From NCBI RefSeq assembly GCF_000196555.1, contig NC_015067.1, forward strand, positions 1,170,001 through 1,202,000: a DNA stretch of 32,000 nt, in the 5' to 3' direction. The notes under the pieces are model-generated. The model was not told the DNA's origin. It ran no database searches and saw only the letters and a program-made list of their open reading frames with translations. Every line of letters begins with the position of its first letter. The stretch's first letter is position 1. Source of the DNA: Bifidobacterium longum subsp. longum JCM 1217. GTDB taxonomy: Bacteria; Actinomycetota; Actinomycetes; Actinomycetales; Bifidobacteriaceae. Below are positions 1 to 26,114 of this stretch, piece after piece. The position numbers and the translations under genes were made by a program.

Positions 1-825
1 TTCGGTCAGGCGTTCGCGGCGCGGATCGTCGTCGGGCATCCAGCCGGACAGGTAGGAGCCGACCATGTCCGGGTCGCCGTGTTCGAGCAGGAGGCGGATG
101 TCCTTCTCCGTGAGCGTGGGACGGTCCGAACCGTCGCGTGCCGCGGCGTCCGGCGCGTACAGGCTCCAGCACGCCCGGTCGGCCAGGCCGGATTCGGCGA
201 TCCGGCGCAACAGGGCCGCGTCCGGCCGGCCGTACCGGAGCACGAGCCATGCGGCGTCCGGGCTTCCGGTTTCGAACAGGCGGACGGCGCGGTCGGCGAT
301 CCAGCCGGGGGCACGGTATTCGAGTTTCGTCAGGACCCCCGGGTCCGTCTCCTTGCCGAACACGTGCAGACGGTCGTCGGGCGTATGGTCCACCAGTTCG
401 AGGCGCACCGTCGGATCCGGATCGTCCAGGAACGAATCCAGCCGGCCGTCCGTCAGCATGCCCATATGCTTCAACGCGTCCAGACGGATTTTCGGATCCG
501 GGTCCGCGAGCACGAGGCCGGGTTCATGCGCGGCGAGCGCGCGGCGTATGGCCTTCGGCAGCGGTTCGCCCGCCTCCGCCATGCGTATCGCGTCACGGGC
601 CGTGTCGCGTCCCATGCCGGTGACGGTCAGGCGGCGCGCGCGCCAGCCTCCGGCCGCATCGTCCACGGCGAAGCAGCCGGTGCGGGCGGCCGCGCGCGCC
701 GCGTTCGCGCTCGCCGCCTCGAACGAGTTCGGCACGGTCCCGCCCCATCGTTCGCGGGTCTCCGGCTCGCCGTAGTGGGCCATCAGCAGGTTCCATTGGC
801 TTTCCGACAGTTTCCTAAGGCTCAT
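1..825 (-). CDS. hypothetical protein with DPDPxxR HEAT/LRV-like repeats; C-terminus lies beyond the left edge
   Basis: It is absent from the ORF track because it runs off the window. Minus-strand translation from ATG (complement 823-825) reads MSLRKLSESQWNLLMAHYGEPETRERWGG...ADPDPKIRLDALKHMG...DDPDPTVRLELVDH...LTEKDIRLLLEHGDPDMVGSYLSGWMPDDDPRRERLTE, with no stop down to base 1. Its composition is balanced, unlike the Arg/Pro/Gly-rich + strand ORFs 65..775, 79..966 and 138..623 that overlap it. Confidence 0.65.
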   Translation of the reverse strand, partial: MSLRKLSESQWNLLMAHYGEPETRERWGGTVPNSFEAASANAARAAARTGCFAVDDAAGGWRARRLTVTGMGRDTARDAIRMAEAGEPLPKAIRRALAAHEPGLVLADPDPKIRLDALKHMGMLTDGRLDSFLDDPDPTVRLELVDHTPDDRLHVFGKETDPGVLTKLEYRAPGWIADRAVRLFETGSPDAAWLVLRYGRPDAALLRRIAESGLADRACWSLYAPDAAARDGSDRPTLTEKDIRLLLEHGDPDMVGSYLSGWMPDDDPRRERLTE

Positions 826-907
826 CGTGTTCTCCCGTCATCGCGCCCCGGCATCGTCGCCGCGACGCATGCGTCCCCCCCCCGGCGGACGTTTTTTTCA
901 GCCCGAT

Positions 908-1984
<1,077 letters not shown>

Positions 1985-2059
1985 TCAAGTCGGTGTTTCG
2001 TGTTTCGTCACTAATTTTTTTCGGTTTTCGGCATGAGGAGTGCCGGCCGGTGGTTTGTT

Positions 2060-2821
2060 TTACTGGTTGTCCGTCTTGCCGAACATGAGGGCCTGGCTGA
2101 CGCGTCGGCTGGGGCCGGTGAATTCGATGAGGCGTCCGTGGTGGACGATGCGGTCGATGATCGCGGCGGCGAGTTTGTCGTCGGCGAAGATCGTCCCCCA
2201 TTTGCTGAACTCGATGTTCGTGGTGAAGATGATGCTGCGCCGCTCGTAGCTGCCGGCGATGATCTGGTAGAGGAGGCGGGCCCCGTCGATGTCGAAGGGC
2301 ACGTAGCCGAACTCGTCGAGGATGATCAGGTCGGCACGGGCGAGGTCTTTGAGCAGGTTGTCGAGGGCGCCGTCGCGTTTGGCCTTGCCGAGCTGGAGCA
2401 CGAGCTCCGCGGTCTGCCGGAACCTCACGCTCCTGCCTTGCTCGATGGCGAGCATGCCCAGGGCGGTGGCCAGGTGGGTCTTGCCGCGTCCCGTCTTGCC
2501 GTAGAACACGAGGTCCTGCGCCTTGGCCACGAAATCGAGGCCGGTCAGCTGCTCCTTGGTGTATCCGTCGGGCAGGCGCACGTTCGCGAAGTCGTAGCCG
2601 TCGAGGCTTTTGGGCACCGGGAACCGGGCCTGGCGCATGAGCCTTGCCCGTTTGGAGGCCTCCCTGTTGGCCAGTTCCGTGGCGAGCATGCGGTCGATGG
2701 CGTCCAGTTGGCGGGGCGTGGCCCATTCGAGCGTTTCGTCGATGGTGGCCTGCGAGATGAACAGGCTCCTCGCCCGCTCGCGCAGCGGGCCGGGGTCGGT
2801 CCGTCCGTTCTTCTGGTTCAC
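2060..2821 (-). CDS. istB: IS21-family helper ATPase IstB
   Basis: It lies in the frame of ORF 2060..3133. The GTG start (complement 2819-2821) overlaps the istA stop. Motifs seen: VNQKNGRT..., FYGKTGRGKTHLATALG (Walker A), LIILDEFGYVP (Walker B) and FTTNIEFSKWG. Confidence 0.9.
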   Translation of the reverse strand: MNQKNGRTDPGPLRERARSLFISQATIDETLEWATPRQLDAIDRMLATELANREASKRARLMRQARFPVPKSLDGYDFANVRLPDGYTKEQLTGLDFVAKAQDLVFYGKTGRGKTHLATALGMLAIEQGRSVRFRQTAELVLQLGKAKRDGALDNLLKDLARADLIILDEFGYVPFDIDGARLLYQIIAGSYERRSIIFTTNIEFSKWGTIFADDKLAAAIIDRIVHHGRLIEFTGPSRRVSQALMFGKTDNQ

Positions 2822-4284
2822 TCGTCCTCCTTGGTGTAGGCGATGTCGTATTCGCTCAGGTCCACGGGGTCGTCGTAGGCCACGGGTCCCAGGCCCGAGG
2901 CGTGGCGTGCCGCGGCCAGACATACCCCGGCCCGGTCCGTGCCTCCGGTGGATTCGAGGATCTCGAGCATGCCGGCCACGGCCGCCCGCCAGCCGCTCTC
3001 GCCGTCGGCGTGCAGCAGGGCACGCAGGCTGTCGCGCCGCGTGGCCTCGTCCTGCGCGTCGATCCATTCGCGAAGCGGGTCGGGCATCGCGTCGCGCACC
3101 CGGCTGTTGCGCCAGGCCGCCGGCCGGTCGCACAACAGCCCGAGCTGGCTCGACGGGTCGCCGCTGTCGGTCGGCTTGTCCCCGTAGGACCTCGGATGCG
3201 TGATCACGCGTTTGCCTTCGGCATCGAGGATCTCCACCTCCAGGGCCCTCAGGCCGACGATCATCTCATGGCCGGCGTGTTCGGGTCCGGCCGCGTACCG
3301 GTGGCGGCCCTGGACGGTGACGTTTCCGTATTTGTCGGCCTTCATCCTCGTCCACGTGACCACGTCGAACGGCTTGGCGGGCAGGGGCAGCAGCGCCTTG
3401 CGATCATCCTCGAACAGGCCGGCCTGGCTCTCGCCCTTCCTGTAATGGTCCTTGTCCCCCAGCTCGAGACAGCGGTCGGGAAGGCGCAGGTTGAAGTTGT
3501 CGAGGCTCCACACGCTGGGCACCGGCACGAACAGCCTTCGGCGCACGGCCCCGACCCTGGCCTCGACCGCGCCCTTCTCGTGGCCCGAGTACGGGTTGCA
3601 GAACGAGTACTCGAACCCGTAATGGGCCTGGAACGCCTGGAACAGGCGGGTCAGGCGGATCTCGTCGAACCGTCGGCGGCCCACGCCGGCGGCATTGTCG
3701 TACACGATGCGCCGGGGCACCCCGCCCAGCCATTCGAACAGGTTAAGCAAAGCCTGACACGTGCATTCCGCGTTCTCCCCGGGCATCAGCTGGCACGGCG
3801 AGATGTTCGAGTACGGGAAATCCAACACGAAATGCCGCATCCGCGTCACGACGCCCCGGTAGCGCACGTCGACCTGGCCGAAGTCCGCCTGGCATTCGCC
3901 CGGATGCCACGACAGGTCCAGGAAACCCATCTCGCGCTCCGCCATGAACTCACGCTTCAACCGGGCCACCGTCCGGGTCACCGTCGACAACGACGCCTCC
4001 ACCCCGTACTCGTCACGCAACCGCTCGTGGATGCGCGTCGCCGTGTGACGTTGCTTGTGCCAGGTCTCCCGGTCCTCGGCGAGCATGCCCTCGATCACGG
4101 GAATCCACTCGTCGAGCACCGAGCCACGGCGTCTCCTTACCGGAGGCCTGGCCGACAGGTCGTCGGCCTTGAGATACTTGCGCACGGTCGGCTCGCTGAC
4201 CTTCTCGCCGCGCGCGATCGAGGCGACGGACTCCCCATTCCTGCGCCTCTGACGGATAGACTGTATTTTGGGCATGCTGATCAT
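2818..4284 (-). CDS. istA: IS21-family transposase IstA
   Basis: ORF 2818..4284 encodes 488 aa. It has an N-terminal HTH (SVASIARGEKVSEPTVRKYL) and DDE-type core segments (CQADFGQVDV, IVYDNAAGVG, NPYSGHEKGAVEARVG). It sits immediately upstream of, and overlapping, istB. Confidence 0.9.
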   Translation of the reverse strand: MISMPKIQSIRQRRRNGESVASIARGEKVSEPTVRKYLKADDLSARPPVRRRRGSVLDEWIPVIEGMLAEDRETWHKQRHTATRIHERLRDEYGVEASLSTVTRTVARLKREFMAEREMGFLDLSWHPGECQADFGQVDVRYRGVVTRMRHFVLDFPYSNISPCQLMPGENAECTCQALLNLFEWLGGVPRRIVYDNAAGVGRRRFDEIRLTRLFQAFQAHYGFEYSFCNPYSGHEKGAVEARVGAVRRRLFVPVPSVWSLDNFNLRLPDRCLELGDKDHYRKGESQAGLFEDDRKALLPLPAKPFDVVTWTRMKADKYGNVTVQGRHRYAAGPEHAGHEMIVGLRALEVEILDAEGKRVITHPRSYGDKPTDSGDPSSQLGLLCDRPAAWRNSRVRDAMPDPLREWIDAQDEATRRDSLRALLHADGESGWRAAVAGMLEILESTGGTDRAGVCLAAARHASGLGPVAYDDPVDLSEYDIAYTKEDE

Positions 4285-4418
4285 TTGCCTTTCCGGCCCT
4301 TTCCCGAATGGATTCGAAGCACCATCAGGCTAAGGCCCACGGGTGGTCGGCATGCCTTTCTGCCTAAACCCGAAAAAACTACGTGACTAAAACCTCAACT
4401 CCCTATTGAACACATACA

Positions 4419-4426
4419 GCGCCCAG
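4419..4426. repeat. target-site duplication GCGCCCAG, right copy
   Basis: See 1968-1975. Confidence 0.85.
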
Positions 4427-4714
4427 CATCCGGTAGAGGGGGTCGCGGGCGTTCTCGCGTCCCTTGCGGGCCGCCTCGGCCGGGGTGACGCCGGGCTTGG
4501 CGTGGATGAACCGGTGGATGGTGGTCCCGTTCACGTTGAGGGCGGCGATGCCGGTGGGCGCGAGGGTGAGCGTGTTGCGCGGCGCGATCGTGCTTCGCCA
4601 ATGGTTGACGAGGGTGCTTTTGCCCGTGCCCGCCTTGCCGGTCAGGATCGAGACGCCCTGGGGTTCGGACAGCATGGCGAGCGCCTTCGCGTCGAAAGTG
4701 AGGTCTTCGGTCAT
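4419..4714 (-). pseudogene. PIF1/RecD-like helicase, N-terminal fragment (Walker A)
   Basis: ORF 4403..4714 reads [36 protein letters not shown]...LAPTGIAALNV...DPLYRMLGA, then runs into the IS end (VCVQ, stop). Joining 4419 to 1975 and removing one GCGCCCAG copy restores ...[17 protein letters not shown]... in frame. Confidence 0.85.
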
Positions 4715-4748
4715 GCGCCGGGGTATGCGTCAGTCGGCCTCCGGGCCG

Positions 4749-5045
4749 TGTATGCATTCCGGCCGGGCTGTATGCATCCGTATGCATCAGGGGATGCATA
4801 CACGCCCGTTCTCCGTTTCGGCTTGTTTCCAGCGTTCCGGGGCGGCCTCCACGCGTGTATGCATTGTATGCATCATTCCCTTATAGAGGATTCGGGAAAA
4901 GGAAGGAAACCCCATATATTGATGCATACAATGCATACAAGATAAAGGAATTATATTTTTTCCTTTATTTATAAGGGTTTTCGGGCTTTTTCCGGGCTTT
5001 TTCTGTATGCATCCCCGGATGCATACAGATGCATACATGCATACA
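4749..5045. repeat. GTATGCAT box array, copy 1 (12 boxes; contains a 20-bp-arm inverted repeat at 4856-4875 / 4920-4939)
   Basis: Forward boxes (GTATGCAT) start at 4750, 4770, 4780, 4857, 4866 and 5005. Reverse boxes (ATGCATAC) start at 4794, 4922, 4931, 5019, 5029 and 5037. TGTATGCATTGTATGCATCA and TGATGCATACAATGCATACA are exact reverse complements separated by 44 bp. The array lies directly upstream of the helicase ATG (4712-4714). Confidence 0.9.
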
Positions 5046-5056
5046 TCGGGGTGAAA

Positions 5057-5163
5057 ACAGTACACTGACGGACTGTTTTCCAGGCCCTTCCGACCCCGAT
5101 ACGGTGGATCCATGGCCCCGGCGGGCATGACGAGGGGCGGCCGACAGTACACAGACGGACTGT
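5057..5163. repeat. two copies of the 20-mer ACAGTACAC(T/A)GACGGACTGT (5057-5076 and 5144-5163), each an ACAGT/ACTGT hairpin
   Basis: I read this directly from the sequence. The first copy is nested inside an ATCGGGGT...ACCCCGAT inverted repeat. The position is analogous to the palindromes that follow box-array copy 3. Confidence 0.7.
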
Positions 5164-5245
5164 TCGCGATTGAACGCCCGGATCGCCGACCCGTATGTTC
5201 CAGAGGGAAAGGAGTCTCGCGATGGAAGACAAGGACAGGCTGGAA

Positions 5246-5299
5246 GGGTTCGGACAGCATGGCGAGCGCCTTCGCGTCGAAAGTGAGGTCTTCGGTCAT
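5246..5299 (-). pseudogene. duplicated first 18 codons of the helicase gene ([18 protein letters not shown]) with no continuation
   Basis: The stretch from 5246 onward repeats the stretch from 4661 almost base for base. After SEP the reading frame diverges into non-helicase sequence. Confidence 0.8.
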
Positions 5300-5334
5300 G
5301 CGCCGGGGCATGCGTCCGATCGGCCTCCGGGCCG

Positions 5335-5631
5335 TGTATGCATTCCGGGGCGCGTGTATGCATCCGTATGCATCAGGGGATGCATACATGCCCGTTCTTC
5401 GTTTCGGCTTGTTTCCAGCGTTCCGGGGCGGCCTCCACGCGTGTATGCATTGTATGCATCATTCCCTTATAGGGGATTCGGGAAAAGGAAGGAAACCCCT
5501 TATATTGATGCATACAATGCATACAAGAGAAAGGAATTCTGTTCTTTCCTTTATATATAAGGGTTTTCGGGCTTTTTCCAAGCTTTTTCTGTATGCATCC
5601 CCGGATGCATACAAATGCATACATGCATACA
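5335..5631. repeat. GTATGCAT box array, copy 2 (12 boxes; 20-bp-arm inverted repeat at 5442-5461 / 5506-5525)
   Basis: It has the same box order and orientation as copy 1. It is part of a 385/386-bp direct repeat (4661-5045 versus 5246-5631). Confidence 0.9.
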
Positions 5632-5641
5632 GAACAGGCCG

Positions 5642-5764
5642 GGGGGACGTCACGATTGGCTGTACAGATGGACGCTGTACAGCCACACCGGGGCGTTGGT
5701 GAGGAAAATCCTCGCTAAGGACGTCGGACTGTCGGAGGTCGAGATTCGGGAGATACTCAAATGA
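5642..5764 (+). pseudogene. hicA: hicA toxin remnant (C-terminal ~27 codons only)
   Basis: There is no start codon. The frame ending at TGA 5762-5764 reads ...YSHTGALVRKILAKDVGLSEVEIREILK, which resembles the HicA C-terminus (xLRKAILKQLGLS type). Its stop overlaps the hicB ATG as ATGA. The 5' part has been replaced by box-array copy 2. Confidence 0.45.
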
Positions 5765-5985
5765 GCGCACACGTGAAATCAGTGAAGATCGTATACCACC
5801 GTGACGAGGGCGCATGGTGGGCCGACTCCCCGGACATGCCGGGATTCTCCGCCGTCGGGGACACCTTCGACGACACGAGGAAGCTTGCCCTCGAGGGCAT
5901 CCCCTTCTACTTCGATGGCAATAGGCCCGATATCGTGGACGAGCGCATGGAGAACGGGGCGAGCCTGAAGCCCACGAGACCGTAA
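5761..5985 (+). CDS. hicB: HicB-family antitoxin (short form)
   Basis: The 74-aa ORF reads VKIVYHRDEGAWWADSPDMPGFSAVGDTFDDTRKLALEGIPFYF. This matches the HicB N-terminal domain pattern (dg.wwa.vpdlPG..a.GdT.ee). Confidence 0.7.
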   Translation: MSAHVKSVKIVYHRDEGAWWADSPDMPGFSAVGDTFDDTRKLALEGIPFYFDGNRPDIVDERMENGASLKPTRP

Positions 5986-6046
5986 GACGCAACCCGGACG
6001 CCGTTCCGGGGGCGCATGTCACATCAAAGCTTAGAATCCCCCGGCT

Positions 6047-6870
6047 TTAGCCGTGGGGAGAAGTCAAATCATCCGAAGCGAGAAAAGGCCGGTCTTGGTA
6101 GAACGTCTCGCCAACACTACCGTTGTAGCATACGGTAATTGTATTGGCTGGGTGCATATTCTCGGTATTACCGACCATTGCGGTGCAACCGTTGTTCATC
6201 GCAGAAGAACCGATAAAGCGTATATCACCCGGAATCATATTTGCTTTTGTCAGCCTTGTTCCTTTAACAACGTCAAACAGCTTCCAAATAACAAACTCCT
6301 GCCATTCGGCTATGCCCAGCGCATGCTTGCTCTCATCGGCTTGCCTCAGCCTCTCAAGGCTTGCTTCAGACTCTCAAGGCTTGCTTCAGACTCTTTCATG
6401 ACTGCCGACATGTACTCGTCCATGTAAGCCCAATCAGGCTCGCCGGACGTATCAACGGGCAAACGAATCATTTCGTCTTCTATAGTCTTGGAATTTAACT
6501 GGTCAGAATACGTATATTTGGTCAGTGACTGGCGAATCACAGACGAAACAAATAGTCCCGACAGTTCTGTTAAACCTGCATTGTGCAACATCAAGATTGC
6601 AGAACCAGCACCACCACGACCCAGAAAAGGCTTGGCTTGATAAAAAGCTGAACCATCAATCGGACTTACTGTGATGCAATTTCCTGCATCCAGCACTTCA
6701 TCATCTTTTGGCTTACACCACTTAGTGACACCATTGTTGAAATTTCCAGATGCAACAAAAGGAATATTTCCGTCTTCATACTTTGCTTGACTACGAGCAA
6801 CTGGTCGCTTTATTTCAAACAACTTACCTATCTTGAACTCTTTCCATCCGTTCGTATCAATCTTCGCCAT
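6047..6870 (-). pseudogene. hsdS: HsdS-like specificity subunit, frameshifted and 3'-truncated
   Basis: ORF 6346..6870 holds TRD1 plus the central helix (GNIPFVASGNFNNGV...ITVSPIDGSAFYQAKPFLGRGG...SEASLESLKQALRG, stop). ORF 6047..6238, with its open upstream frame (LERLRQADESKHALGIAEWQEFVIWKLFDVVKGTRLTKANMIPGDIRFIGSSAMNNG...YNGSVGETFYQDRPFLASDD), holds TRD2 in a different frame. TRD2 ends abruptly without a distal conserved helix. Confidence 0.8.
6351..6390. repeat. perfect 20-bp tandem duplication (CTCTCAAGGCTTGCTTCAGA x2) inside the hsdS central helix
   Basis: 6351-6370 equals 6371-6390. Removing one copy reads ...KESEASLERLRQADESKHALGIAEWQEF..., which fuses TRD1 and TRD2 in frame. Confidence 0.9.
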
Positions 6871-8659
6871 CGCCGTCTCCGCCTTTCCTCATGGTTACGG
6901 TCACGGACTTGTCATCGGCGCTCACTCGGCTCGAATACATCGCTGTGTCCAGCAGCTTCTCGCCGAACTCCTTTGCGTCGATGCCCTGCCGGAACATCAG
7001 GTAGTCCATCGCCGTCTTGCGGAAGTCCTCCTCGAATATCTCGAACGGCTTCTGCGGCATCTGATAGGACAGGTGCTCGGCGGGGTTCACCCACTGGCAT
7101 GTATCGTCGCCGGACTGCTTCTCGACCACATCGACCCAATGAGCCTCAATGGCCGCCCACTTGCCGTAGACGTCATGGCGTCCCTTGTTCTTGACCGTCG
7201 CCAGACCATCGGACTCCATGTAACAGGCGAAAAACTCCTTGCCGTCCTGTCCGACGCCCGCCTCGAACACGAAGATGCTCGTGGTCACGCCCACGCCGAA
7301 GAACAGGTCTTCCGGCAGCTTGATGACCTTGCGCAGGCGATGGTTCTTCAGAATGCGCTTCATCTGCGCCTTCGATGCTTTCTCCAGCTTCTTGTCCGGC
7401 AGGATGAACGCGCACTGGGTATGTGCGGGAACGCTGTCCATCACGTTCTCGACGATGGTCATGCAGCCGTACTTGTTCTCGTACGGCGGGTTCATCAGCA
7501 CCTTCGTGATCGGCTTGGACTGCATCCATTCGTTGGCTGCATCCGTGCGAGTATCCATCTGTTCAAGGTTCGTCTTGCCGTCCTTGTGAATCAGCATGTT
7601 CGCGCACGCCAGCGCGTAAATCTCGCGGTCGAACTCGATGCCGTAGAGCTGCTTGGATTTAATCTCGCCGGCCTTCTTCGTTTCCATGCCGCCGGCCTCG
7701 CGAATCATGTTCGCCATGGCCTTCACGAGGAAGCCGCCGGAACCGCACGTGGCGTCCAGAACGCAGTCGTCCATGTTCACTTCGAGAATCTTGTATATGA
7801 AGTCCGTGATGTGCTCGGGCGTGAATATCTGCCCCGATTCGGACTTTTTCTTGTAACGGTTGAACTCGTTGAAGAAAATGCCCATCACGTCCTCGCCGCG
7901 CCATTCGTTCGAGTTGACGCACTCGGAAATCTCGACGACCCAGTCGATGAAGTCATTGATTGCCTTCTGGTTGTCGGTCGTGTTCATCTTGATGTCGGAA
8001 TATTCCTCCAGCAGGATGTCAATTTTCGCATTCTGTTTGCGACTGGCTATCAATGATTTTGCAAGCGTCGAGTGAATCGCCGTATGGAACGTCTCATACC
8101 CAAGGTCTTTCAGACGCTTCAATCCCGCACCGTAACGCTCGGCAACCAACGCGCATGCCGTGAAAATCATGCGGTGGTACAGGTTCTTGATGCCGAACTC
8201 GAAATGCAGGCAGTTGTTGATACGTGCCGTCAGCTGGTAGATGCGCTCCTTGTCGATGCTATCGACGGTATAGAGCGACAGGTAATAGCCGACATGCTGC
8301 AACTTGTCGGGCGTCTTGACTTCCTCCTCGCCCTTGAACACGCGCACATCCTCGCCGTTGTACAAAACGCCGACAACCTTCTCATATTGTGTCTGCATGA
8401 TGCGGACGTTCTTCAGCACCTCGTCCACCTGCGCCTTGCCCAGGGCAATGCGCGTCGCCTTCGTCTCCAACACCAGCGCTACATCCGCCTTGTTCTTCGG
8501 TAGATACCAGCCGTCCGGCTTGTCGGCAATGCCTGAAAATCCGAGCTGGTTGAACGTCGTGAGCTGGCCAACGCCGGCACAAGCCAAATCACTATCCGCA
8601 AGTCCAAGAATGTCACGTGCCAAATCGCGCACGGCATCCTCTGTCATATTCTTCGCCAC
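6857..8659 (-). CDS. N6-adenine DNA methyltransferase subunit with an N-terminal PD-X15-ExK nuclease-like motif (HsdM-like; possibly a BcgI-A-like type IIB R-M subunit)
   Basis: The product is 600 aa. It carries VLDATCGSGGFL (motif I) and LMNPPY (motif IV). N-terminal residues 48-67 read PDGWYLPKNKADVALVLETK. The gene overlaps the specificity gene by 14 nt. No hsdR is visible in the window. Confidence 0.85.
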   Translation of the reverse strand: MAKNMTEDAVRDLARDILGLADSDLACAGVGQLTTFNQLGFSGIADKPDGWYLPKNKADVALVLETKATRIALGKAQVDEVLKNVRIMQTQYEKVVGVLYNGEDVRVFKGEEEVKTPDKLQHVGYYLSLYTVDSIDKERIYQLTARINNCLHFEFGIKNLYHRMIFTACALVAERYGAGLKRLKDLGYETFHTAIHSTLAKSLIASRKQNAKIDILLEEYSDIKMNTTDNQKAINDFIDWVVEISECVNSNEWRGEDVMGIFFNEFNRYKKKSESGQIFTPEHITDFIYKILEVNMDDCVLDATCGSGGFLVKAMANMIREAGGMETKKAGEIKSKQLYGIEFDREIYALACANMLIHKDGKTNLEQMDTRTDAANEWMQSKPITKVLMNPPYENKYGCMTIVENVMDSVPAHTQCAFILPDKKLEKASKAQMKRILKNHRLRKVIKLPEDLFFGVGVTTSIFVFEAGVGQDGKEFFACYMESDGLATVKNKGRHDVYGKWAAIEAHWVDVVEKQSGDDTCQWVNPAEHLSYQMPQKPFEIFEEDFRKTAMDYLMFRQGIDAKEFGEKLLDTAMYSSRVSADDKSVTVTMRKGGDGDGED

Positions 8660-8889
8660 TACTCATCCACCTCCTCAAGATACTCCTGCACCCACTCGTG
8701 GATGATTGCGGCAATCGTCGTCCCACGCTCCGCAGCCGTCATCTTGAGCGCCTTCTTGTCGCTCACGGTGAGCGACAGCGAGAGCGTGGTGCGCTTCTCG
8801 TCCGCCGTCGTGTCGGCGACGACGGCCTCCTCTGTCTTCTTCTGCCCGGCCTCGCGGTCGGCGGCGTATTGCTCGAACATGTTCGCCAT
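8659..8889 (-). CDS. ribbon-helix-helix (CopG/Arc-like) DNA-binding protein
   Basis: I start it at MANMFEQY..., which is preceded by AAAGGAGG with 7-nt spacing. The segment TLSLSLTVSDKKALKMTAAERGTTIAAIIHEWVQEYL fits a beta-strand plus two-helix pattern. Its stop overlaps the methyltransferase start by 1 nt. Confidence 0.65.
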   Translation of the reverse strand: MANMFEQYAADREAGQKKTEEAVVADTTADEKRTTLSLSLTVSDKKALKMTAAERGTTIAAIIHEWVQEYLEEVDE

Positions 8890-8910
8890 GGCCCGACCTC
8901 CTTTAATCAT

Positions 8911-8926
8911 TTGCACAATTGCACAA
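8911..8926. promoter_or_regulatory. tandem 8-mer TTGCACAA TTGCACAA, candidate operator of the RHH/methyltransferase operon
   Basis: This direct repeat lies about 20 bp upstream of the RHH start, in the AT-rich divergent region between the RHH gene (-) and the exonuclease gene (+). RHH proteins typically bind tandem or inverted short repeats. Confidence 0.4.
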
Positions 8927-9066
8927 TCATACATCTTGCTTTATGGGATGCGCAGACGGAACATCGCCCTGACCTCCCAGAAGTGCCGGGACCGCACCCC
9001 GCGGAACCTTCCCAAGCATCCCCGTGGGATCCGCCCCCGTGGAATGCGTGACGCATACCCGGGGGC

Positions 9067-9624
9067 ATGAGCACACACGACAATGATGACAAGCCGGTCC
9101 GCCTCCTGTGGGTGGACACGGAGACCACGGGCCTCGACCCACGCAAGGATCCCATCCTCGAGATCGGCATGATCGCCACCGGCCCCGACCTGAAGCCGGT
9201 GGACGACGGGTTCCACACGACCGTCCACTGGGAAGGCAAACCATCCGAATTCATCCAGGGCATGCACGGGCCCAACGGACTGCTCGCCGAATGCGCGCAC
9301 CCGAGCGCCCCCCACATGTTCGCCGCCGCCCTGTCCGCACGCGACTACGTGGCCCGACACCTCGGCCAGGGGGTCCGCCTCCTGCCCGCCGGCAGCACCG
9401 TCCGCTTCGACCGGGACATGATCGACAGCTGGATGCCCGGCGTGCTCGACGGCTGCTCCCACCGGTCCCTGGACATCAGCGCCGTCTGCGAGGCCGTCCG
9501 CATGTGGAACCCCGCGATCCTGCCCGACATGGAACCGTCCACCGACCACCGGGTCATGCACTGCCTGGCCGACACGCTCCGCTACGCGCGCGCATACCGG
9601 GGGCTCATATGCTCGATCGGCTGA
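9067..9624 (+). CDS. oligoribonuclease (Orn)-like DEDDh 3'-5' exonuclease
   Basis: LLWVDTETTGLDPRKDPILEIGMIATGPDL..., GSTVRFDRDMI...HRSLDISAV...WNP and DHRVMHCLADTLRYARAYR are collinear with Orn ([52 protein letters not shown]..YYR). Confidence 0.75.
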   Translation: MSTHDNDDKPVRLLWVDTETTGLDPRKDPILEIGMIATGPDLKPVDDGFHTTVHWEGKPSEFIQGMHGPNGLLAECAHPSAPHMFAAALSARDYVARHLGQGVRLLPAGSTVRFDRDMIDSWMPGVLDGCSHRSLDISAVCEAVRMWNPAILPDMEPSTDHRVMHCLADTLRYARAYRGLICSIG

Positions 9625-25815: not shown

Positions 25816-26114
25816 GTATGCATTCCGGGCGGGCTGTATGCATCCGTATGCATCGGGGGATGCATACATCTTTTCTTTCCGTTTCGGCTTGTTTCCGACG
25901 TTCCGGGGATGGTCCGGAGGCGTGTATGCATTGTATGCATCATTCCCTTATAGGGGATTCGGGAAAAAGGAAGGAAACCCCATATATTGATGCATACAAT
26001 GCATACAAGAGAAAGGAATTATATTTTTTCCTTTATATATAAGGGTTTTCGGGCCTTTTCCCAAGCCTTTTCTGTATGCATCCCCGGATGCATACAGATG
26101 CATACACGCATACA
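25816..26114. repeat. GTATGCAT box array, copy 3 (11 exact boxes plus 1 ACGCATAC variant; 20-bp-arm inverted repeat at 25923-25942 / 25988-26007)
   Basis: It has the same order and orientation of boxes and the same AT-rich core as copies 1 and 2. It lies between the N6/N4 methyltransferase start (25775) and the XRE gene. Confidence 0.9.

Follow-up and report, generated by a model that had tools for sequence, protein, structure and literature searches.

How did two nearly identical copies of a short segment come to lie head to tail in the genome of Bifidobacterium longum subsp. longum JCM 1217, with the stump of a regulator gene between them? The segment, ~385 bp long, consists of the 5'-end of a PIF1-like helicase gene and an array of short boxes. 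The window, i.e. the whole 32,000-nucleotide stretch that was analysed, covers positions 1170001-1202000 of contig C1 of a 2.39-Mb single-contig genome (G000). The 385-bp repeat is interpreted here, with moderate confidence, as a genuine tandem duplication that is common to a sampled lineage and arose by the steps proposed below. The helicase locus concerned is taken to belong to a large integrated element of B. longum that is conjugative or megaplasmid-like.

BLAST alignment of positions 4661-5045 with 5246-5631 gave 95.1% identity over 387 columns in the same orientation, with a period of 585-586 bp. A repeat finder reported the direct repeat pairs 4661-4731/5246-5316 (70 of 71 positions identical) and 4734-5033/5320-5619 (94%). 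Two copies of one segment are thus arranged head to tail, as in a tandem segmental duplication. Translation of the minus strand of both copies gave the first 18 residues of the helicase, and both contain the full set of GTATGCAT boxes, the 8-bp box being present 12 times in an array of ~300 bases. The original prediction, which had described near-identical direct repeats with a period of about 585 bp, each including 18 helicase codons and the full array, is confirmed in these respects. The 9-mer TGTATGCAT occurs 31 times in the window, as compared with 0.05 occurrences expected by chance, and a third array is located at ~25826-26113, where its neighbours are a gene for an N4/N6 methyltransferase on one side and an XRE gene on the other.

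The spacer between the copies ends in AAAGGAG-N7-ATG and encodes MEDKDRLE. The ribosome-binding site (RBS) motif and the peptide were correctly predicted, the ATG being at position 5222 and not at 5221. The codon that follows, GGG, is shared with the helicase side. Three relatives (G043, L046 and L050) have an intact 191-aa XRE gene at this place, whose product begins with MEDKDRLEG; hence MEDKDRLE is the true stump of a regulator, designated XRE-I, and the start of a longer gene as had been supposed. The intact 191-aa orthologues P0001-P0003 contain HTH_3/HTH_31 domains (PF01381, PF13560) and have the same start and the same GGAAAGGAG RBS. In the window, only the first 27 nt and the last 31 nt of XRE-I persist; codons 1-9 and the last ~10 codons are left, and the DNA-binding domain is not present. 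The regulator of the helicase locus has therefore been destroyed, as predicted. The type-I leader that precedes the stump has shrunk to 176 bp with two operators, as compared with ~660 bp and 9-10 operators in the relatives, pieces of which are retained in the window.

The left junction reads CTGGAAGGGTTCGGACAGC in the window, CTGGAAGGGCTCGCC in the native XRE gene, and CCCTGGGGTTCGGACAGC in the helicase. Codon 9 of XRE-I is joined to codon 18 of the helicase, in antisense, on GGG at 5246-5248, and the shared sequence extends to 7 nt (GGGYTCG) if one mismatch is allowed. Since a join of the end of one unit to the start of the next on a short microhomology is the product of a tandem duplication, this junction points to such an event.

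Further support comes from relatives with a single array. G043 is the only other array-carrying species representative of Bifidobacterium (148 searched). Its five arrays are all single, and their left flanks match the five array loci of G000 one to one. The helicase locus of G043 consists of a leftward helicase gene, one array, nine ACAGTACA-N5-GGACTGT operators, the intact 191-aa XRE gene, and an RNase_T exonuclease gene. The metagenome contig L046 has the same layout; its flanks match the window at 97-98% identity, and its 451-aa helicase is intact. The metagenome contig L050 is also laid out like G043 but has a different leftward gene and ten operators. The predicted ancestral order, i.e. 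leftward gene, array, operators, and rightward regulator, is therefore that seen at the orthologous locus in these three relatives. The single-array state of the helicase locus was found in G043, L046, L050, L117, and L165-L174.

To the right of the junction, homology to G043, L046, and L050 is interrupted by 3.77 kb of other DNA (Table 1). As the last 31 bases of the regulator survive at 9021-9051, this block has replaced the interior of XRE-I. The block contains, in order, copy 2, a leader designated III, a hicAB fragment, a cassette of methylase and specificity genes, and an RHH gene, and its GC content is 48-57% as compared with ~70% in the flanks. The specificity gene of the restriction-modification cassette is frameshifted. 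Thus, the regulator was indeed lost, as predicted, but not by being overrun by the 385-bp duplicate; copy 2 forms only the left end of a much larger replacement.

The 64-bp leader III has no homology to intact hicA, and homology to hicAB is limited to 5696-5972, where the window is 97-98% identical to G051 and G131. As compared with the intact pair of G051 (HicA, 77 aa; HicB, 109 aa), 22 of 77 hicA codons and ~70 of 109 hicB codons are present. The HicB_lk_antitox Pfam match is weak and sub-threshold. Leader III and hicA are joined on the microhomology GGTGAGG, and hicB is also cut at its 3'-end (74 aa vs 109 aa). The proposal that copy 2 replaced the 5'-part of hicA is not tenable, because leader III separates array 2 from the hicA fragment; hicA was therefore cut by a separate illegitimate event. 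Of the two neighbouring genes said to be truncated by the duplication, XRE-I is cut at the repeat boundary, and hicA is cut at the GGTGAGG junction instead. The truncations at the two ends of hicAB were separate events.

The relationship of the two copies differs between the halves of the array. Over the left half (4745-4900), 8 differences in 156 positions separate copies 1 and 2, and 2 in 157 separate L046 from copy 1, whereas at least 21 in 158 were counted for each of the other arrays of G000, G043, L045, and L050. Hence a true copy was made of the left half and the helicase stub. Over the right half (4901-5045), the array nearest to copy 1 is that at genome position 1097910 (1 difference in 145). 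For copy 2, the second array of L045 and the array at 1129734 are the nearest (5 in 145), and the two copies differ from each other at 9 of 145 positions. This pattern indicates that copy 2 is probably a mosaic, with a left half that is sister to copy 1 and a right half and downstream flank from another array lineage. Almost all differences between the copies are states present in other arrays. Together with the similarity of arrays within an element, this indicates that copy 2 is a mosaic and that the arrays probably evolve in concert by gene conversion. None of the 20 inter-copy differences falls in the boxes, which make up 96 of 385 nt (P ~0.003 by position, 0.02 by clustered event).

Two assemblies show exchanged tracts of ~90 bp. 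In L043, a copy-1 tract (4724-4813) has copy-2 states, and reciprocally, in L044 a copy-2 tract (5309-5399) has copy-1 states. Either reciprocal gene conversion or mis-phasing by the assembler would account for them.

Regulator exchange at this locus is apparent from the gut-metagenome contig L117, which is 99-100% identical to the window on both sides and has an intact helicase and one array, the latter 100% identical to copy 1 over 4745-5038. There, the array is followed by another leader, a 181-aa regulator, XRE-IV (MDETVRML..., 1885-2430, minus strand), and then the exonuclease gene. XRE-IV and XRE-I have only the C-terminal ~30 residues in common. The exact helicase protein of L117 was found in 112 index blocks, and all 10 places listed (L165-L174) have a single array and XRE-IV. 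As backbones that are 99-100% identical carry XRE-IV, regulator cassettes have been exchanged between near-identical backbones, and the history of the locus therefore includes cassette exchange and not one duplication alone. The array forms the left limit of the exchange and the conserved 3'-tail of the regulator gene the right limit, and the conserved C-terminal tail looks like the right-hand homology arm.

Regulators of types I, II, and IV were observed, with operators ACAGTACA-N5-GGACTGT or ACTTTACAATATTGTAAAG. In the immunity regions of temperate phages, a CI/Cro-type repressor and its operators are exchanged as a cassette. The situation here is similar in that an XRE regulator and its own operator type are swapped as a unit between near-identical elements. 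It differs in that the exchange occurs between the box array and the 3'-tail of the regulator gene, and in that the element is conjugative or megaplasmid-like and not a phage.

The block of the window is present elsewhere. The contigs L045 and L106 carry the same succession of helicase stub, array, leader III, and hicAB fragment, with a longer stub of 30 codons. In both, the stub is joined to codon 45 of an open reading frame (ORF) that follows leader III, behind a first array whose left neighbour is different in each contig. Leader III thus also occurs there after an array, running into an unrelated 45-codon ORF that starts with GTGAGGCAG. In L045 (5317-5451) and L106, the ORF fragment (VRQLRDGKSRIVV...) follows a CTGTACAG-N7-CTGTACA leader; a search for a full-length copy or homologue of this ORF beyond these 45 codons found none.

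The following history is proposed. The ancestral locus would have consisted of the leftward helicase gene, the box array, operators, the XRE-I repressor gene, and the exonuclease gene. Illegitimate recombination on GGG would then have joined codon 9 of XRE-I to codon 18 of the helicase. The junction itself is observed; the likely cause would be that replication switched template, or that sister strands were unequally exchanged, across an array that is strongly palindromic and probably protein-bound. In a second step, array-to-array homologous recombination or gene conversion may have replaced the right half of copy 2 and everything downstream as far as the last 31 nt of XRE-I, the arrays serving as portable homology. 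Leader III would have been brought in by this exchange, along with a cargo made up of the hicAB fragment, the RHH gene, and a restriction-modification cassette of type IIB-like character. The mosaic pattern is seen directly, and the order of the events is the one that we infer. As the net result, the repressor and most operators have been lost, and two complete arrays, presumably with divergent promoters, face a dead 200-bp spacer. If each array does have divergent promoters, the pair should transcribe convergently across this spacer. The IS21 insertion would have broken the helicase gene later.

The first step has counterparts among the RecA-independent tandem duplications at microhomologies in bacteria, which form where short repeats or nearby palindromes lead to a switch of template or to an unequal exchange between sister strands. 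Shared features are the head-to-tail repeat, the end-to-start junction, a microhomology of 3-7 nt, and a strong palindrome inside the unit. In such duplications, the second unit is followed by the original downstream sequence, whereas here leader III and the cargo stand in place of the type-I leader and XRE-I.

This difference requires either a second event or an origin from two elements. Several points weigh against a duplication followed by replacement. A microhomology of 3 nt is weak evidence for any particular mechanism. The distances on which the mosaic structure of the right half is based are small (1-13 in 145), so that this part of the argument is soft, and mis-phasing of the L043 and L044 tracts, if that is what they are, would count in the same direction. 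Neither of the intermediates predicted, i.e. a single-array form with the cargo or a duplicated form with intact XRE-I, was found. Finally, the presence of the cargo block with a 30-codon stub in L045 and L106 implies that the block may predate the junction of the window and may come from a second element.

The last point leads to the alternative that fares best. A single illegitimate crossover between XRE-I codon 9 of one element and helicase codon 18 of a related one in the same cell would give the same structure from two copies that were never identical. One parent would have had helicase, array, operators, and XRE-I, and the other helicase, array, leader III, and cargo. The occurrence of the block in other contexts with a longer stub is as expected from such a crossover, as is the affinity of the right half and downstream flank of copy 2 to the second array of L045 and not to copy 1. 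Moreover, the different regulator cassettes on 99-100% identical flanks show that co-circulating elements frequently exchange DNA. However, the left 240 bp, including the stub and the left half of the array, are near-identical in the two copies and have variants in common that no other array of the genome shows, which a local copy explains at least as well. A single-array parent with the cargo was not found among the contigs inspected. An inter-element crossover is considered rather unlikely.

Local duplication, the preferred explanation, does not stand alone in this element family. In G000 the array is present nine times at five loci, all within 133 kb, and three of the loci carry tandem sets: two arrays 524 bp apart at 1129734/1130259, the pair in the window, and three arrays 458 bp apart at 1229495-1230711. 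Metagenome contigs provided 28 array loci, of which 4 were likewise tandem; their periods are 443, 476, 522, and 617 bp. In the spacers at 1129734-1130557, 1229495-1230711, L121, L128, and L139, the leader of a type-II XRE gene is cut exactly at the start codon (ATG to TTGACGTCC...) and is followed by a GC-rich hairpin filler and then ~12-20 nt of left-flank sequence, one spacer unit being found at different array loci. Independent junction classes thus number at least three, namely that of the window, that of L045 and L106, and that with the type-II leader. All have a common topology of array, leader, 0-45 codons of a rightward gene, left-of-array sequence, and the next array.

GC-rich hairpin units (stem, TGAA loop, stem) are found in the window at 6034-6076, at G000:C1:1099675, 1101243, and 1112062, and also inside the spacers of tandem arrays. 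These could be terminators or a small palindromic repeat family.

Strong palindromes and heavy protein binding are known to provoke template switching during replication. The array is a nested palindrome and is presumably heavily protein-bound. As single-stranded DNA (4740-5050), it is predicted to fold into a large branched hairpin of -76.7 kcal/mol, with z-scores of -9.1 and -10.9 on the two strands as compared with shuffled controls. The fold resembles the single-stranded structures that have been discussed for sequences controlling the leading region of conjugative plasmids.

The possibility that the array represents an RNA gene, or else a single-strand promoter, was considered. The fold is very stable, but there is no covariation to test because the boxes are invariant. 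A search of the array against Rfam at a permissive threshold gave only meaningless matches to microRNA hairpins and no family, and a scan for the sigma-70 consensus found no promoter in the array. An iteron-type origin of replication does not fit either, as nine copies at five loci lie beside helicase, methyltransferase, and other genes, with no adjacent Rep gene in the window. Most likely, the array acts as a multi-site docking platform or as a control region heading divergent operons rather than a unique origin.

In the literature consulted, the nearest analogue of the array is EGeRS1 of pLS20-family plasmids, a non-coding module of 400-600 bp that is rich in inverted repeats and has very stable predicted single-stranded folds (Val-Calvo et al. 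2021, PMC8708921). Each plasmid has about five of these modules, placed ahead of establishment operons that include methyltransferases and nucleases; copies from the same plasmid cluster together, and EGeRS1-C carries an internal duplication (PMC8708921). Conserved copies rich in inverted repeats at operon heads of a conjugative element, and apparent concerted evolution, are common to both systems. In contrast, there is no sequence similarity, the hosts belong to different phyla, and the array described here consists of 12 copies of an 8-bp box between divergent genes, with a role that is deduced. A more distant analogy is provided by the Bifidobacterium megaplasmid pMP7017, in which a conserved 34-bp motif overlaps promoters before many transcription units and was proposed as a transcription-factor site (Dineen et al. 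2024, PMC10832533). It too is an element-specific repeat in front of many units of a large bifidobacterial conjugative element; it differs in sequence and is a single 34-bp site as compared with a 300-bp array.

Recurrent duplication could mean that array number matters to the element. The array may be prone to duplication, as a replication barrier or as a substrate of its own binding protein, with the copy number at each operon head tuned by selection. If so, the three junction classes would reflect adaptation of binding-site dosage, and the arrays would in addition provide a built-in platform on which co-circulating elements swap regulator and cargo cassettes; such a combination is judged improbable. 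The simpler proposal that extra arrays at this locus were favoured through binding-site dosage, by titration or stronger local control, is quite improbable as well. It would account for three amplified loci with intact boxes: G000 has 2, 2, and 3 copies at three of five loci as compared with single copies in G043, and all boxes of copy 2 are intact, with 0 of the 20 differences falling in them. The duplicated form is also often sampled, its hicB-fragment marker being found in 339 index blocks as compared with 112 for the intact helicase. On the other side, conservation of the boxes is expected anyway if other arrays were the source of the differences by conversion, the sampling counts reflect how abundant the host lineage is as a clone, and the locus is otherwise decaying: IS21 sits in the helicase gene, the repressor is lost, hicAB is truncated, and the specificity gene is frameshifted. 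Array instability, with the duplication as its by-product, is the best reading, and not a new function.

Loss of all intervening DNA between two distant arrays, each at the head of operons of its own, would likewise leave a rightward stub facing a leftward stub, which is the topology observed. Four arrays of this genome (1097910, 1129734, 1174745, and 1195816) share the same direct orientation, and L045 has lost a 403-aa gene and most of the helicase gene beside an array, so that large deletions next to arrays do occur. However, a second helicase gene by the second array would be needed, and every relative inspected has one helicase and one array. In addition, both ends of XRE-I flank the block, which is therefore inside one gene and not between two operons. 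Origin by deletion is highly improbable.

The structure is not restricted to this genome. When public assemblies were looked up for exact matches to the 74-aa product that the hicB fragment encodes, 339 index blocks were obtained, and the same two-array structure was present, with 99.8-100% identity over >7 kb, in at least seven other assemblies (L038-L044, 7 of the 10 places listed), which are five NCBI assemblies and two ENA metagenome scaffolds. The regulator/helicase junction is also present in L036 and L037 (CP049767.1 and CP137052.1). These two were deposited as complete and yet contain 100-N runs inside the arrays (locus positions 5007-5105 and 5638-5737). They were considered as a third structural variant and set aside on account of these gaps, and only the presence of the junction was used. 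That one array was wrongly assembled twice is hardly credible: the gaps in L036 and L037 mark the region as hard to assemble, but the copies differ at ~20 positions, their flanks differ on both sides, and different projects and assemblers recovered the structure at least seven more times. As at least seven other assemblies share it, an error confined to this genome is very unlikely. Neither JGI metagenome contigs nor GTDB species representatives contained the exact junction pattern, a negative result of little weight since records close to this genome may be lacking from these collections. A search of genome contigs for the inner-arm pattern gave only single chance matches in unrelated metagenome-assembled genomes, BLAST of 4661-5700 against phage and plasmid collections gave no match, and a search of the literature brought up no relevant description of an integrative conjugative element of this type in B. 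longum.

Table 1. Features of the duplicated helicase locus (window positions).
Feature	Position	Strand	Remarks
PIF1-like helicase, C-terminal part	908-1963		split off by IS21
IS21-family insertion	1976-4418	minus	istA 2818-4284, istB within 2060-3133; Pfam rve/Mu-transpos_C_2, IstB_IS21
PIF1-like helicase, N-terminal fragment	4403-4714	minus	103-aa ORF, Walker A region; Pfam PIF1/AAA_30
Repeat copy 1	4661-5045	plus	helicase codons 1-18 (4661-4714, minus strand), 30-bp gap, box array 1 (4745-5045)
Shrunken type-I leader	5046-5221	plus	operators at 5057-5077 and 5144-5164 (ACAGTACA-N5-GGACTGT), RBS; repeat family D4
XRE-I regulator stump (MEDKDRLEG)	5222-5248	plus	three-way alignment with XRE-I of L046 and L050 and with the helicase
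Repeat copy 2	5246-5631	plus	helicase stub, codons 1-18 (5246-5299, minus strand), box array 2 (5331-5631)
Replacement block, 3.77 kb	~5249-9020		replaces XRE-I nt ~28-545; homology to G043, L046, L050 ends at 5252, resumes at 9016-9021
Leader III, 64 bp	5632-5695	plus	CTGTACAG-N7-CTGTACAG at 5660-5682; no homology to intact hicA
hicAB fragment	5696-5972	plus	last 22 hicA codons (to 5764), first ~70 hicB codons; ORF 5761-5985, 74 aa
BcgI-like methylase/specificity cassette (type IIB-like restriction-modification)	6346-8659	minus	Pfam Methylase_S, N6_Mtase
RHH gene	8659-8934	minus	Pfam RHH_10
XRE-I 3'-remnant (..PWDPPPWNA, stop)	9021-9051	plus	alignment to L046 and L050, translation; directly upstream of the exonuclease gene
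Exonuclease gene	9067-9624		RNase_T Pfam match

Several ORFs cross the arrays: 4787-5389 (minus strand, 200 aa), 5195-5560 (plus strand, 121 aa), and 5615-5764 (plus strand, 49 aa). They consist of box repeats, gene stubs, and antisense leader, and public annotations call two of them as genes, the 200-aa ORF that spans both arrays and the 49-aa ORF ahead of hicB. On translation, the frame of the XRE-I stump continues for 113 codons into array 2; this extension and the 200-aa ORF look like junk, and the array-crossing ORFs are almost certainly not genes. The 200-aa and 49-aa ORFs, as well as the 74-aa 'HicB', are thus to be regarded as annotation debris.

The homology of the helicase gene to G043 and L046 is interrupted at 1975/4419, with an 8-bp overlap, and the uninterrupted 451-aa helicase is present in L046 and L117. 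In L040 (GCA_051906175.1; locus positions 1-4515), the IS21 that splits the helicase gene adjoins nrdR and a 2-hydroxyacid dehydrogenase gene and not the C-terminal half of the helicase gene, which suggests an IS21-associated deletion or rearrangement in that strain.

Because IS21 breaks the helicase gene, the locus looks like a decaying part of the element, and the element here is probably decaying. A common B. longum lineage thus carries a helicase locus with neither a functional repressor nor a functional helicase. The rearrangement would be an ordinary scar of illegitimate recombination and one of several array duplications in the element family. The mechanism is conventional, and the value of the case lies in the resolved history and in the recurrence of array duplications. 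If the proposed history is correct, a repeated control module of a large mobile element of Bifidobacterium would serve both as portable homology, through which regulators and cargo are exchanged, and as a fragile site, at which duplications recur.

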